Shown here piece by piece: positions 28,885 to 32,434 of a stretch of DNA of 64,000 nt; within the stretch, counting starts at the first letter, position 1; every line of letters begins with the position of its first letter. The stretch spans positions 1 through 64,000 of IMG/VR virus record IMGVR_UViG_3300028805_000055; one strand, written 5' to 3'. The position numbers were made by a program, and so were the translations under genes. Under the pieces are notes generated by a model. The model had not been told where the DNA came from. It searched no databases and worked only from the letters and a program-made list of their open reading frames with translations. The DNA is from a virus. Lineage: Duplodnaviria > Caudoviricetes.

Positions 28885-29745
28885 ATGATTATCGGATTTG
28901 CAGGTAGAATGAGAGGTGGAAAGTCAGAGCTTGCAAAGGTCTGCGAAGACCTTGGGTATAAAAAGCTGTATTTTGCATTACCGCTTAAACAACTCTGTGC
29001 AGACCTCCTGGATATTTCCATCGATGGACTCAACGAAGCAAAAAACAAGGGAATCGATATAGGAATTACAATTGGTGACGATATGTGCGAGATTCTTGCT
29101 GAAGAGACTGAGATACCATTGGATGTCGTAAGGGAGAAGTGTCACGGTAAAGTCATAAACACCGTGAGACAGATGCTTCAGTTCATAGGTACTGACTTAA
29201 TCAGAGAATATAACAAGGATTGGCACGTCAACAGGATACGCGCCATGATAAACCCAAATGAAAATTATGTGATTGATGACGTAAGATTCAAGAATGAGAA
29301 GGAACTCATAGATGAGCTTGGTGGTGACTGCTGGTTTGTCACCAGGACATCACTGGAGAACATATCAAACCATGAGTCGGAGACATCACTTACCTGGCAT
29401 GATTGCTGGAACAGGATTATAATAAATGACAACACGTTACATTATCTATTGTTTAAATGGGGGGCTTTCATGGATAATTATGAAAGGTCTTGCGCCTTTA
29501 GGGATAAAGAGTTTAATAGAATACTGGAAAATGGTACTGAGGGTGAAATAACAAAGATGTCAACCCTTGACATGCTCATGCTATCAAGGGATATGTTCAC
29601 CTACTCACCAATAGAATTTAACAAGGATGCAATAAAGAGTGTAGAAATGCTGGATAATAACGGTGTTAAGATTACATACAACGATGATACATACGAATTT
29701 GTCTATAACGCACTTAACATCGAAGACCTAAAAATGATACTTTAA
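28885..29745 (+). CDS. Deoxynucleoside monophosphate kinase
   Basis: IIGFAGRMRGGKS, FALPLK, RQMLQFIGTD, DDVRFKNE, HESE. Confidence 0.88.
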   Translation: MIIGFAGRMRGGKSELAKVCEDLGYKKLYFALPLKQLCADLLDISIDGLNEAKNKGIDIGITIGDDMCEILAEETEIPLDVVREKCHGKVINTVRQMLQFIGTDLIREYNKDWHVNRIRAMINPNENYVIDDVRFKNEKELIDELGGDCWFVTRTSLENISNHESETSLTWHDCWNRIIINDNTLHYLLFKWGAFMDNYERSCAFRDKEFNRILENGTEGEITKMSTLDMLMLSRDMFTYSPIEFNKDAIKSVEMLDNNGVKITYNDDTYEFVYNALNIEDLKMIL

Positions 29746-29859
29746 CAGACTTTAACCACAATTTTTTGCTTTTTAGGAAAAAAATATATAACTTTGCACA
29801 AAATTTACAATAGACACAATATTTTTGCACCCTAATATCATATTTATATAAAAAGGTAT

Positions 29860-30726
29860 ATGGAATATAAAAGGATATGCAGAATTTGCGGTAAAGAGTT
29901 AAAATATGGGTCTTACTCAGCATATTGGCTTGCTGAGAAAAATAACTCAATATGCAGAAATTGTGCCGCTAGGAATAAAGCTACTAGAAAATGTGATTTA
30001 TCACCATTACTAAATGAAACTCCAGAAGCATATTATTGGATTGGTTTCCTTTTGGCTGATGGTAGTTTTATTGATGGTAGGATTAAATTTCACCTAAAAC
30101 TTGGTGATTCTTCACAGGTAGAAAAGTTTGCTAAATTCATAAATTGGGTTGGTAATTTCGACGATAGAGGAGAACTAGGCATTGGTGTCGCTGCAAAGCA
30201 TACTAGTATTGTTAATGCCTTAGTCAAAAAGTTCGACATTAAGGAGAAAAAGACTTATAATCCTCCAGAAACTATATTAAATCACGACAAAAATTTACTC
30301 AAATATTTAATTGGAGGGTTTATTGATGGTGATGGAAATATTTCAAAGCAAACTGGTAGAAATGATTCATTCATACGAATTAAGCTACATAGTTCCTGGG
30401 AAAAGATACTAAAAGAATTCTGTGAAATCATAGGATATGATAAATCTCACGTAAAAATAAACAATAATGGGTATGCTGAATTAGTTATTTCTGATTCTAG
30501 AGTAATATCCAAGCTTAAAAAAACACTAGTTGATGGAAATATACCACTGTTAGAAAGAAAATGGTCAATCATAGATGATAATTTTATTAGTAGGTATGAA
30601 AAGTCCAAAATAACAAGAGAAAAAGTAATAGAACTATTATGCGAAGGAATGAAAAATAAGGATATAAGCAAGTTACTTTCTATATCACCTTCGTTAGTTA
30701 CAAAAATAAGTAAAAGTTATGAGTGA
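29860..30726 (+). CDS. Free-standing two-motif LAGLIDADG homing endonuclease
   Basis: YWIGFLLADGSF and LIGGFIDGDGNI; N-terminal CxxC...CxxC; C-terminal HTH; AT-rich; overlaps the start of the next gene. Confidence 0.88.
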   Translation: MEYKRICRICGKELKYGSYSAYWLAEKNNSICRNCAARNKATRKCDLSPLLNETPEAYYWIGFLLADGSFIDGRIKFHLKLGDSSQVEKFAKFINWVGNFDDRGELGIGVAAKHTSIVNALVKKFDIKEKKTYNPPETILNHDKNLLKYLIGGFIDGDGNISKQTGRNDSFIRIKLHSSWEKILKEFCEIIGYDKSHVKINNNGYAELVISDSRVISKLKKTLVDGNIPLLERKWSIIDDNFISRYEKSKITREKVIELLCEGMKNKDISKLLSISPSLVTKISKSYE

Positions 30727-31347
30727 TAATATTAAAACAAAATTTGAGAGTGGGTCGGACGTGTTTTTCACGTCCGACACCTAGTGACCCATTTTGGACA
30801 CGCCAATATCATTGGGTTCTGTAACCGCCCGTTCAAGGACGTGGAGGAAATGAACTACAAACTCATTGAGAACTGGAATAAGAAAGTCCCAGTGGATGGT
30901 CTGGTCTTCCATCTTGGGGATTTTGCTTGGGGTGGATACCCATTCTGGAAGAATATCAGAAGTCAACTCAATGGTAGAATTATTCTAATCAAGGGAAACC
31001 ACGATGAGAAGAATATGACACCAACTGCCGAGCAGGAACTATTCGATTATGTAACATTCCAGATGAAGGTGGAAATTGAGGGAAGGAAGGTTTATCTTAA
31101 CCATGTACCATTCCTATGCTATGGAGGTACTTATCGTGACCCGAAGGGGTTGGTATATCAGTTGTTCGGGCACGTCCATTCAGGTCCTGGTGCTAAGGGA
31201 TTGGACATAGACCGATTGAAAATGCTTTTCCCAACGCAATACGATGTAGGGGTTGATAAAAACAATTATGAGCCTGTATCCTGGGCAGAGGTTAATGAAG
31301 CCATAGGAAAACAGTTGCTCAAATCAAAATTTAAAAAAGAAAAATAA
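30719..31347 (+). CDS. Calcineurin-like metallophosphoesterase split by an 8-nt insert (candidate translational bypass), 206 aa if joined
   Basis: ATG 30719 gives MSDNIKTKFESGSDVFFTSDT-stop. Another frame resumes HFGHANII...HLGDF...KGNHD...LNH.P...GHVH. Joining restores FFTSDTHFGH. Confidence 0.85.
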
Positions 31348-31362: not shown

Positions 31363-31734
31363 ATGGCACGAAATGTAAAGCTATCAAGGGTCGCTAAACT
31401 GACATTGCAGTTTATGAAACATAATGGTATATATAGATTATACTACAATGAGTTCAGAACTAACAGGTATAAAAAACCATATTTCTACAAGAAAGATGGA
31501 TATCTGGAATTCCTGCGTGACAGAATAGAGAACGATGGCTGGTTTCTCTGTAACCAGGAAGACAGGGAACTTGATAGTTATTTCATAAGGTATGTTCTTT
31601 TCATGATAAATGAGATTCACATATTACTTGAAAAACCACCAACATATGAGGATATATGTTTCTTCTACGACATGGTAGAGCTATATTTCAAGGAGCACGC
31701 CTTACTTGGAGCAAATGTATTGGTAAATGAGTAA
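31363..31734 (+). CDS. Hypothetical protein
   Basis: 123-aa ORF in operon. Confidence 0.6.
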   Translation: MARNVKLSRVAKLTLQFMKHNGIYRLYYNEFRTNRYKKPYFYKKDGYLEFLRDRIENDGWFLCNQEDRELDSYFIRYVLFMINEIHILLEKPPTYEDICFFYDMVELYFKEHALLGANVLVNE

Positions 31735-32434
31735 AATATTGATAATACCAGACGTACATGGTAGGACGTTCTGGAAAGATGCCGTTGAAAAACATGCTGA
31801 GGAATGCGATAAGATAGTATTCCTTGGGGACTACCTTGACCCATACCCTTGGGAGGGTATTACCAGGAGACAAGCCATCAAGAACTTTGAAGAAATAATA
31901 GACTATAAGGCAGCAAATAAGGATAAGGTAATTCTGCTTCTGGGAAATCACGATATGGAGTACTACGACAATAACTTCAGAACCAGGGTAAGATATGACG
32001 CAAGTCACGCCTATCACATAGCAGAGGATTTTAGGTCTCACAGAAGCTTTTTCCAGCTTGCATATGAGGAAACTATCAATGGTAAGACATATTTATTTAC
32101 ACATGCTGGTGTAACTAAGTCATGGCTGGAGAGATATAAGAACCTTATAGGAGAACCTACTGCCGATAACCTTAATCCGTTGAAAGATATGTCTGCTGGT
32201 GTAGTAAGCCTCACACAGATGTCAAGGTATCGTGCAACATGGGGAGAAAAGGTAGGAAGCATGGTGTGGTCTGACATCAACGAGAAGAAGGAAGATGAAG
32301 ACCTTGATGGCATCTACCAGATATTCGGGCATTCACAGCAGGAGGAGCACCCAGTGATTACGAGAACCTGGGCTTGCCTTGATTGCAGAAAAGCGTTTAT
32401 ACTAACAGAAGATGGAGGATTCCAAGATGTGTAA
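31727..32434 (+). CDS. Metallophosphoesterase
   Basis: PDVHG, LGDYLD, LGNHD, THAG, FGHS. Confidence 0.9.
   Translation: MSKILIIPDVHGRTFWKDAVEKHAEECDKIVFLGDYLDPYPWEGITRRQAIKNFEEIIDYKAANKDKVILLLGNHDMEYYDNNFRTRVRYDASHAYHIAEDFRSHRSFFQLAYEETINGKTYLFTHAGVTKSWLERYKNLIGEPTADNLNPLKDMSAGVVSLTQMSRYRATWGEKVGSMVWSDINEKKEDEDLDGIYQIFGHSQQEEHPVITRTWACLDCRKAFILTEDGGFQDV

Follow-up and report, generated by a model that had tools for sequence, protein, structure and literature searches.

A LAGLIDADG endonuclease gene and an eight-base interruption of the neighbouring phosphoesterase gene: a candidate homing cassette with a probable translational hop in a rumen-type phage

How might a phage make an enzyme whose gene is broken by eight extra bases in the middle of its catalytic motif, and why should the break lie just behind a homing endonuclease gene? 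The question is raised by a 64,000-nucleotide stretch of rumen-type phage DNA (hereafter the window), which represents positions 1 to 64,000 of the 153.7-kb IMG/VR virus contig IMGVR_UViG_3300028805_000055. There, a free-standing LAGLIDADG endonuclease gene, present in a single copy in the contig, is followed by a calcineurin-like metallophosphoesterase (MPE) gene that can be read only as two segments. Relatives are given as locus handles; L177 is a second phage with the same arrangement, and L006 is a relative without the nuclease. The parts of the locus are as follows.

29785-29800, plus strand: Bacteroidota-type box TAnnTTTG (TATATAACTTTGCACA), conserved in relatives; candidate promoter
29801-29859, plus strand: cassette leader 5' of the nuclease gene, holding a second TAnnTTTG-like box (TATTTTTG); near-identical in L177 and missing from nuclease-less relatives
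29860-30726, plus strand: LAGLIDADG homing endonuclease gene, 288 amino acids, intact, free-standing and two-domain according to Pfam, motifs and an AlphaFold2 (AF2) model
30719-30781, plus strand: MPE coding segment 1, 21 codons (MSDNIKTKFESGSDVFFTSDT); the last two encode the metal-binding Asp and the Thr of take-off (ACC)
30754-30778, plus strand: hairpin of 10 bp with a 5-nt loop (GTCGGACGTG / TTTTT / CACGTCCGAC); the last three bases of the 3' arm are the Asp codon, directly before the take-off ACC
30782-30789, plus strand: eight extra bases, comprising the stop TAG (with an overlapping in-frame TGA), TG and the landing codon ACC at 30787-30789
30790-31347, plus strand: MPE coding segment 2, 185 codons plus stop, starting CAT TTT GGA CAC (HFGHANI onward) and including GDF, GNHD and GHVH
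30790-30815, plus strand: right edge of the transferred (co-converted) tract; the window tracks L177 through CATTTTGGAC and is L006-like thereafter

The explanation favoured here, with a probability of about 0.62, is that the block from 29801 to ~30815 is a mobile homing cassette made up of the nuclease gene, 21 recoded MPE codons that form a hairpin, and eight bases that split the DxH motif. The ribosome would hop across the split, and the split would protect the cassette-bearing genome from its own nuclease.

Segment 1 ends in FFTSDT, with the Asp encoded by GAC at 30776-30778 and the Thr by the take-off codon at 30779-30781. The insert begins 55 nt past the nuclease stop, inside SD-T|HFGH, which contains the DxH metal-binding motif. 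It can equivalently be placed at 30779-30786, and the untranslated gap proper is the 5-nt TAGTG at 30782-30786. A skip of 8 nt from ACC to ACC rebuilds SDTHFGH, and an uninterrupted SD-x-H..H reading is found in 73 of 73 IMG/VR relatives retrieved with the MPE. The calcineurin-like motifs DxH, GD, GNH(D/E) and GH are all present, although DTH is restored only by joining across the hop. Segment 2 scores below the curated Pfam cut-offs for both Metallophos (23.2 bits, cut-off 27) and Metallophos_2 (18.9, cut-off 21.5), and gene callers annotate the MPE as a 165-aa remnant. A first-pass annotation, made from the letters of this DNA, had described an 8-nt insert about 55 bp after the endonuclease stop in the SDTHFGH codons, and an intact, AT-rich, two-motif LAGLIDADG gene lying between the promoter and the phosphoesterase and overlapping the ATG of the latter; all of these features are seen in the sequence.

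The strongest new evidence for a cassette is a mosaic of two phage backbones. Between the window and L177, the nuclease region is 94-98% identical (nuclease 95% overall), MPE codons 1-21 are 98% identical and the insert is identical, compared with 75-79% in the dNMP-kinase gene (28885-29745), the upstream neighbour of the nuclease gene, and 76-85% in the MPE downstream of the insert. The flanks of the window instead follow the nuclease-less L006, with 91-96% identity across the thioredoxin, kinase and promoter, up to 97-98% just past the insert and 97% over nt 40-80; in MPE codons 1-21, identity to this own-backbone relative is ~70%. The backbone of L177 is L001-like, with 95% identity over the first 40 nt after the insert and a switch right at the insert. 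L006 and L001 are the empty-site counterparts of the window and L177 backbones, respectively. The left junction of the cassette lies at ~29801, just after the promoter box, and the right junctions in the window and L177 lie 0-25 nt beyond the insert. One cassette in two diverged backbones, with edges at these points, indicates that its pieces moved together: at least two phage backbones have received the block from 29801 to ~30815 as a single unit. A second donor and recipient pair was sought by comparing L189/L102 with the 3300045988 phages, and L180 and L183 with L003 and L005, and no backbone close enough was found among them.

Further downstream, at ~31150 (~360 nt past the insert), identity to L006 falls from ~90% to 50-65%, and L001 and L177 are then the closest relatives. 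By its identity profile, this position is a further recombination breakpoint within the MPE gene; mosaicism is extensive among these phages.

The nuclease family comprises 389 proteins at E < 1e-5. A metagenome scan with the family alignment returned 79 loci, and in most of those that are long enough the MPE adjoins the nuclease. Co-occurrence was counted over pooled loci, with an insert defined as 2 nt or more and four junctions set by eye, where the automatic finder was overruled: the window (spurious 5 nt), L104 (none), L106 (3 for 6) and L145 (2 for 5). An insert is present at 30 of the 49 loci with both nuclease and MPE and at none of the 71 loci with an MPE and no nuclease (Fisher p = 1.1e-15). 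Further loci reached through nuclease homologues of 52-95% identity (L177-L183, L193-L197) are interrupted in 12 of 12 cases, by 6, 8 or 11 nt, and within the window's own nuclease clade (at least 60% identity) all 13 unique loci are interrupted, by variants of 8-12 nt. Two IMG/VR loci, L074 and L075, carry a 67-69% identical nuclease at the same position and an MPE cut at the same codon as in the window; the break reads ACC TAG GC ACT in L074 (8 nt) and ACC TAG GTA GGA ACT in L075 (12 nt, in frame yet with a stop). The pattern GACACCTAG..CATTTTGG has 22 matches in IMG/VR, of which the only genuine ones are two loci already known, the others being due to chance.

The junctions bear consistent marks of a translational hop. 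Among the 23 junction types compiled, the shifts are 5, 6, 7, 8, 10, 11 or 12 nt. A stop codon directly follows the take-off codon in 23 of 23 types (TAG in the window), a count slightly inflated by a junction-placement rule that favoured stop-followed placements. The landing codon equals the take-off codon in its first two bases in 19 of the 23 (p about 1e-19); the window has ACC/ACC, and the matched pairs include ACC/ACC, ACC/ACT, ACT/ACT, CTG/CTG, CTT/CTA, ACG/ACG, CAT/CAT and TTG/TTA. Since the in-frame 6- and 12-nt inserts keep the stop and all frame classes are present, no single frameshift explains the set. Reassignment of the stop codon was considered and rejected, as the 5-, 7-, 8-, 10- and 11-nt inserts shift the frame. 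The 1-nt 'inserts' of L140 and L174 were disregarded, as each might be a homopolymer error or a +1 slip. In both, a nuclease-adjacent MPE needs a 1-nt skip inside motif I (GAC ACT CAT TTT CTG G CAT and GAC TTT C CAT, respectively); L174 could represent a +1 slip at TTT_C, and either could be a homopolymer sequencing error.

The second mark is the hairpin. Its minimum free energy (MFE) in the window is -17.5 kcal/mol. Over the 42 nt ending at the Asp codon, 31 unique insert-bearing genes have a median MFE of -17.4 kcal/mol; the medians are -3.0 for genes that have the nuclease but no insert and -2.8 for those that have no nuclease (Mann-Whitney U test, p = 1e-12). Across seven variants of the 10-bp stem, 100% of cells pair and three pairs are altered on both sides. 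A role as an intrinsic terminator was rejected: there is no T-run after the stem, and a terminator scan returned none. No take-off stem-loop is found inside the gap, where the 5-nt TAGTG is too short, and the sole strong structure is the hairpin on the 5' side of the take-off codon. The hop comes after only 21 residues, and because the conserved FFTSD doubles as an enzyme motif, a constraint on the nascent peptide is inseparable from it by sequence.

These features strongly suggest that the enzyme is still produced through ribosome hopping. In the mechanism proposed, peptidyl-tRNA-Thr would occupy ACC 30779-30781 in the P site, with TAG in the A site. The 3' arm of the hairpin (30769-30778), which includes the E-site codon, would be within the ribosome, and the 5' arm would already have left it. 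Slow termination would leave time for the stem to re-form behind the ribosome, so that the mRNA would be pulled toward the exit; the tRNA would then drop ACC and re-pair with the second ACC 8 nt on (ACC or ACU in relatives), and decoding would resume at CAT. The product would be a 206-aa protein containing FFTSDTHFGH, and a hop of this kind would need no take-off stem-loop of the type found in bacteriophage T4 gene 60. Segment 2 appears to be maintained as coding sequence. In 7 diverged insert-bearing genes it has 183-186 open codons, with proportions of nonsynonymous (pN) and synonymous (pS) differences of 0.08-0.22 and 0.70-0.98 (synonymous sites being saturated), and at ~20 more insert-bearing loci the tblastn alignment is single and unbroken.

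The nuclease gene itself is intact. Its product matches LAGLIDADG_1 (PF00961) at E 3e-5, and both LAGLIDADG motifs, LLADG (D67) and IDGDG at residues 155-159 (D156 and D158), are invariant in 30 homologues, acidic residues included. An N-terminal element of four cysteines (C7, C10, C32 and C35) and a paired-box-like helix-turn-helix at the C-terminus flank this core. The AF2 model has a predicted local distance difference test (pLDDT) value of 93.3, and its top PDB matches are I-AniI, I-SmaMI, I-LtrI and I-OnuI (Foldseek probability 1.0, E 4e-7 to 1e-5), at a sequence identity of only 11-18%. On this model, the protein is predicted to have the pseudo-symmetric monomeric two-domain LAGLIDADG fold (alpha-beta-beta-alpha-beta-beta-alpha, doubled). 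Enzymes of this class make site-specific double-strand cuts in long targets of about 20 bp, and the present nuclease may do likewise. It shares with those four meganucleases the fold, the two LAGLIDADG helices and the conserved acidic residues; unlike them, it is free-standing rather than intron-encoded and has the additional four-Cys and helix-turn-helix elements. The GC content of the gene is 0.26-0.34, compared with 0.40-0.45 in the flanks. Its stop, TGA at 30724-30726, overlaps the start of the MPE, whose ATG is at 30719-30721.

It may be, although this is less firmly indicated than the hop, that the endonuclease cuts uninterrupted MPE alleles in or near the sequence encoding DxHxxH, and that the insert splits this site. 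The cassette-bearing genome would then be immune, and the insert would be dragged along with the nuclease gene during repair. In relatives, inserts lie after Dx, DxH, DxHF or DxHL, and GHx. All five codon positions fall within a stretch of seven codons that starts at the x of DxH and finishes at the x of HxN, the pattern expected if each insert independently splits one nuclease target. The right junctions beside the insert offer indirect support for a target near the motif.

Besides the inflated count of stops, several points weigh against this reading. The insert is absent from 19 of the 49 nuclease-bearing loci and is thus not required by every member of the nuclease family; type-B nucleases, which have a different C-terminal half, occupy exactly the same site with no insert in L004, L007, L100 and L101. 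In the other direction, a hop-bearing MPE occurs without a recognisable nuclease in L186, where a C5 cytosine methylase is encoded upstream, and in L185, L188, L190 and L191, all from a scan aimed at the 5-nt variant and separate from the MPE-based sample. The downstream exon is part of the recipient backbone, so that the signal of purifying selection dates in part from before the transfer, and the architecture of the hop and the covariation of the hairpin are therefore the better arguments for function. Insertion of the nuclease gene in itself already splits the promoter/ATG junction, which would confer immunity if that junction were the target. A second phosphoesterase gene nearby, at 31727-32434, could render the interrupted MPE dispensable. 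Finally, both the hopping and the immunity are inferred from sequence.

What the first-pass annotation proposed is thus partly supported. Its view of nuclease and insert as a mobile cassette is borne out by the 94-98% identity of the block shared by the window and L177 against 75-85% in the flanks. Its expectation that the two would occur together is strongly upheld by the counts of 30/49 and 0/71, but the link is not obligate in either direction, as the 19 loci without an insert and the nuclease-less insert of L186 demonstrate. Its proposal that the gap is bypassed at translation gains the stop, the matched codons and the hairpin as hallmarks, and from these we infer the hopping itself. For the self-immunity that it proposed, the support is indirect.

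The usual cutting site of a LAGLIDADG enzyme is the point where its own element is inserted. The main rival explanation, possible though unlikely, is that the target here is the insertion site at the promoter/ATG junction, and that the hairpin and insert hitchhike in the co-conversion tract while doing some other job, such as throttling or timing MPE synthesis or uncoupling MPE translation from the overlapping nuclease open reading frame (ORF). The position of the nuclease just 5' of the MPE ATG even in very distant members, with or without inserts, fits such a target, as do the nuclease-bearing loci that manage without an insert; however, an insert with another job does not readily account for the absence of inserts from all 71 nuclease-less loci of the MPE-based sample. 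The five codon positions within one short conserved stretch resemble repeated disruption of a site and not a regulatory design, and in two independent transfers the right junction is 0-25 nt away from the insert, not at a variable distance.

It is improbable that the insert simply kills the MPE and that these genes are young pseudogenes. The function could then be covered by a paralogue two genes downstream, and one is present: a second, uninterrupted calcineurin-like phosphoesterase of 235 aa at 31727-32434 (Pfam Metallophos E 1.7e-11), whose position is conserved in relatives. The intactness of the downstream exon says little alone, since in the window and L177 it was recently joined, and it is only a remnant that gene callers annotate. 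A dead gene would nevertheless hardly be expected to keep the stop in 23 of 23 types, a matched landing codon in 19 of 23, and a hairpin preserved by compensatory changes within coding sequence. There is no second lesion in ~30 diverged insert-bearing genes, all catalytic motifs are retained in both segments, and in L186 the hop-bearing gene persists after loss of the nuclease.

Recoding of another kind is very improbable. Either the ribosome would shift by -1 on G UUU UUC, within the loop of the hairpin, or translation would start afresh at GTG 30784. The -1 frame is indeed open from ~13 codons upstream of the insert, and GTG ACC CAT is in frame with segment 2, but both routes lose the metal-binding Asp of DxH. 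Moreover, the in-frame 6- and 12-nt inserts together with those of 5, 7, 10 and 11 nt are not all rescuable by one kind of frameshift, and the equivalent place in L074 and L075 offers no start codon. A sequencing or assembly artefact, which might be suspected given that the record is one metagenomic assembly, can be dismissed almost entirely, as the same or closely related inserts recur in separate ENA, Logan, JGI and NCBI assemblies, and near-identical ones in the independent assemblies L177-L183 and L193-L196.

The hop-bearing cassette has one close parallel. Bonocora and colleagues reportedly described in 2011 how the 50-nt bypass of T4 gene 60 lies within a MobA homing endonuclease element. 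In later work, the gene 60 bypass is likewise treated as part of the MobA element, and the bypass can persist there when the nuclease is lost or another takes its place (10.1101/2022.08.31.505936). Forward bypassing in gene 60 has been proposed to be driven by pairing of the mRNA that leaves the ribosome, which matches the role suggested here for the hairpin (10.1101/2024.12.09.627546). The two systems are alike in having a homing endonuclease gene beside a coding gap in an essential motif of its neighbour, matched codons for one tRNA, a stop after the take-off codon, and mRNA structure on the 5' side. In both, the gap and nuclease move as a cassette, and the gap may outlast the nuclease, should the latter be lost or replaced. 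They differ in nuclease family (LAGLIDADG here, HNH in T4), in host gene (a metallophosphoesterase here, a topoisomerase subunit in T4) and in gap size (5-12 nt here, 50 nt in T4). Unlike gene 60, the present gap has no room for an in-gap take-off stem-loop, and with 21 codons before the hop a long nascent-peptide signal is unlikely. Unlike MobA, the nuclease gene lies upstream of the whole host gene and does not split it, and there is no sequence homology. Since nuclease family, host gene and gap size all differ, an independent origin of the arrangement, as proposed when the locus was first annotated, is reasonable.

Other systems share some of these features. According to the passages of 10.1101/2022.08.31.505936 that cite Weiss et al. 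1987 and O'Connor et al. 1989, 'stop-hops' of +5, +6 or 9 nt for one amino acid occur in E. coli reporters. As described there, a peptidyl-tRNA leaves a stop-followed codon and re-pairs with a match a few nucleotides downstream, as would happen here; those hops, synthetic or adventitious, are inefficient, whereas the present one would be a conserved natural feature of a phage gene with a dedicated 5' hairpin and an enzyme that depends on it. Lang and colleagues in 2014 and Nosek and colleagues in 2015 are said to have described the mitochondrial bypass elements ('byps') of Magnusiomyces. These too are short mobile coding inserts, skipped at translation and flanked by matched codons, but they measure 27-55 nt, are numerous in each genome, are eukaryotic-organellar and have no tie to a homing endonuclease. 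Nucleases are also found at the boundaries of genetic exchange among phages (PMC10448857). In the intronless homing of the T4 Seg and Mob enzymes, as here, the nuclease lies between genes, the flanks are co-converted and a boundary between phage lineages results. Those enzymes are of the GIY-YIG or HNH type, with immunity usually due to point differences in the target, in contrast to the LAGLIDADG enzyme and the untranslated insert proposed here.

To our knowledge, natural programmed bypassing in bacteria and phages is essentially limited to T4 gene 60 and its homologues, with the byps of yeast mitochondria as a further case. Full-text literature searches returned only T4 gene 60/MobA and general reviews of recoding, and nothing on LAGLIDADG-linked short hops or interrupted phage phosphoesterases; a blastn search of GenBank phages gave two short, distant MPE matches only and no cultured relative. 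To the pattern first noted, the present analysis adds the evidence of co-transfer from the two-backbone mosaic, and the loci that break the association in one direction or the other. If the hop is real, it would be a second, independent and far simpler bypass system, and its dozens of natural variants would constitute a mutational series in gap length, codon pair, stop identity and hairpin strength. A possible general rule for selfish genes, for which the evidence here is indirect, is that a homing endonuclease could gain self-immunity by placing an untranslated gap in a catalytic motif that could not otherwise change. The chances seem evenly balanced that there is a whole natural class of hairpin-driven 'stop-hops' of 5-12 nt, acting as translation-level mini-introns that are repeatedly created and that blind a LAGLIDADG family to its own genome; a 5' hairpin, a stop and a repeated codon would then suffice for efficient bypass, with neither a nascent peptide nor a take-off stem-loop. 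The module of hairpin, stop and repeat might serve as a compact recoding tool. For annotation, such MPE genes are at present cut to 165-aa fragments by gene callers.

The left side of the cassette can be compared with empty sites. In the nuclease-less L001, L003, L005 and L006, the MPE ATG comes straight after the conserved box TATATAACTTTGCAMA, so the nuclease gene represents a ~917-bp insertion between the promoter box and the ATG. The promoter label of the TATATAACTTTGCACA box comes from the known Bacteroidota -7 consensus and is putative. At the empty sites, for example in L001 and L006, the TAnnTTTG box is only ~3 nt from the MPE ATG, which suggests that the MPE mRNA of nuclease-less relatives is leaderless or nearly so. 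Where the cassette is present, it supplies the nuclease with a 30-nt leader and contributes a TAnnTTTG-like box of its own.

Some individual loci depart from the common pattern. The nuclease-less hops of L185, L186 (845-861, minus strand), L188, L190 and L191 all consist of a 5-nt hop, GAY ACT TA ACT CAY, with a hairpin. The protein encoded upstream in L188 is Cys-rich, 313 aa long and of no known family, and profile comparison of the upstream proteins of L188 and L191 with the nuclease family gave no similarity. In L074 (2983-3918), the nuclease ORF lacks a separate stop and continues in frame across the MPE start as far as the TAG of the hop site; hopping ribosomes could make a fusion of nuclease and MPE there. 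L104 (1144-2192) combines a 6-nt hop, CTG TAA CTG, with a second split of the MPE, at residues ~73-84, by a ~1-kb insert with a further LAGLIDADG-like ORF inside it (motifs LGFLYADGS and LGYFDG). Homing elements seem to have a hotspot in the MPE gene.

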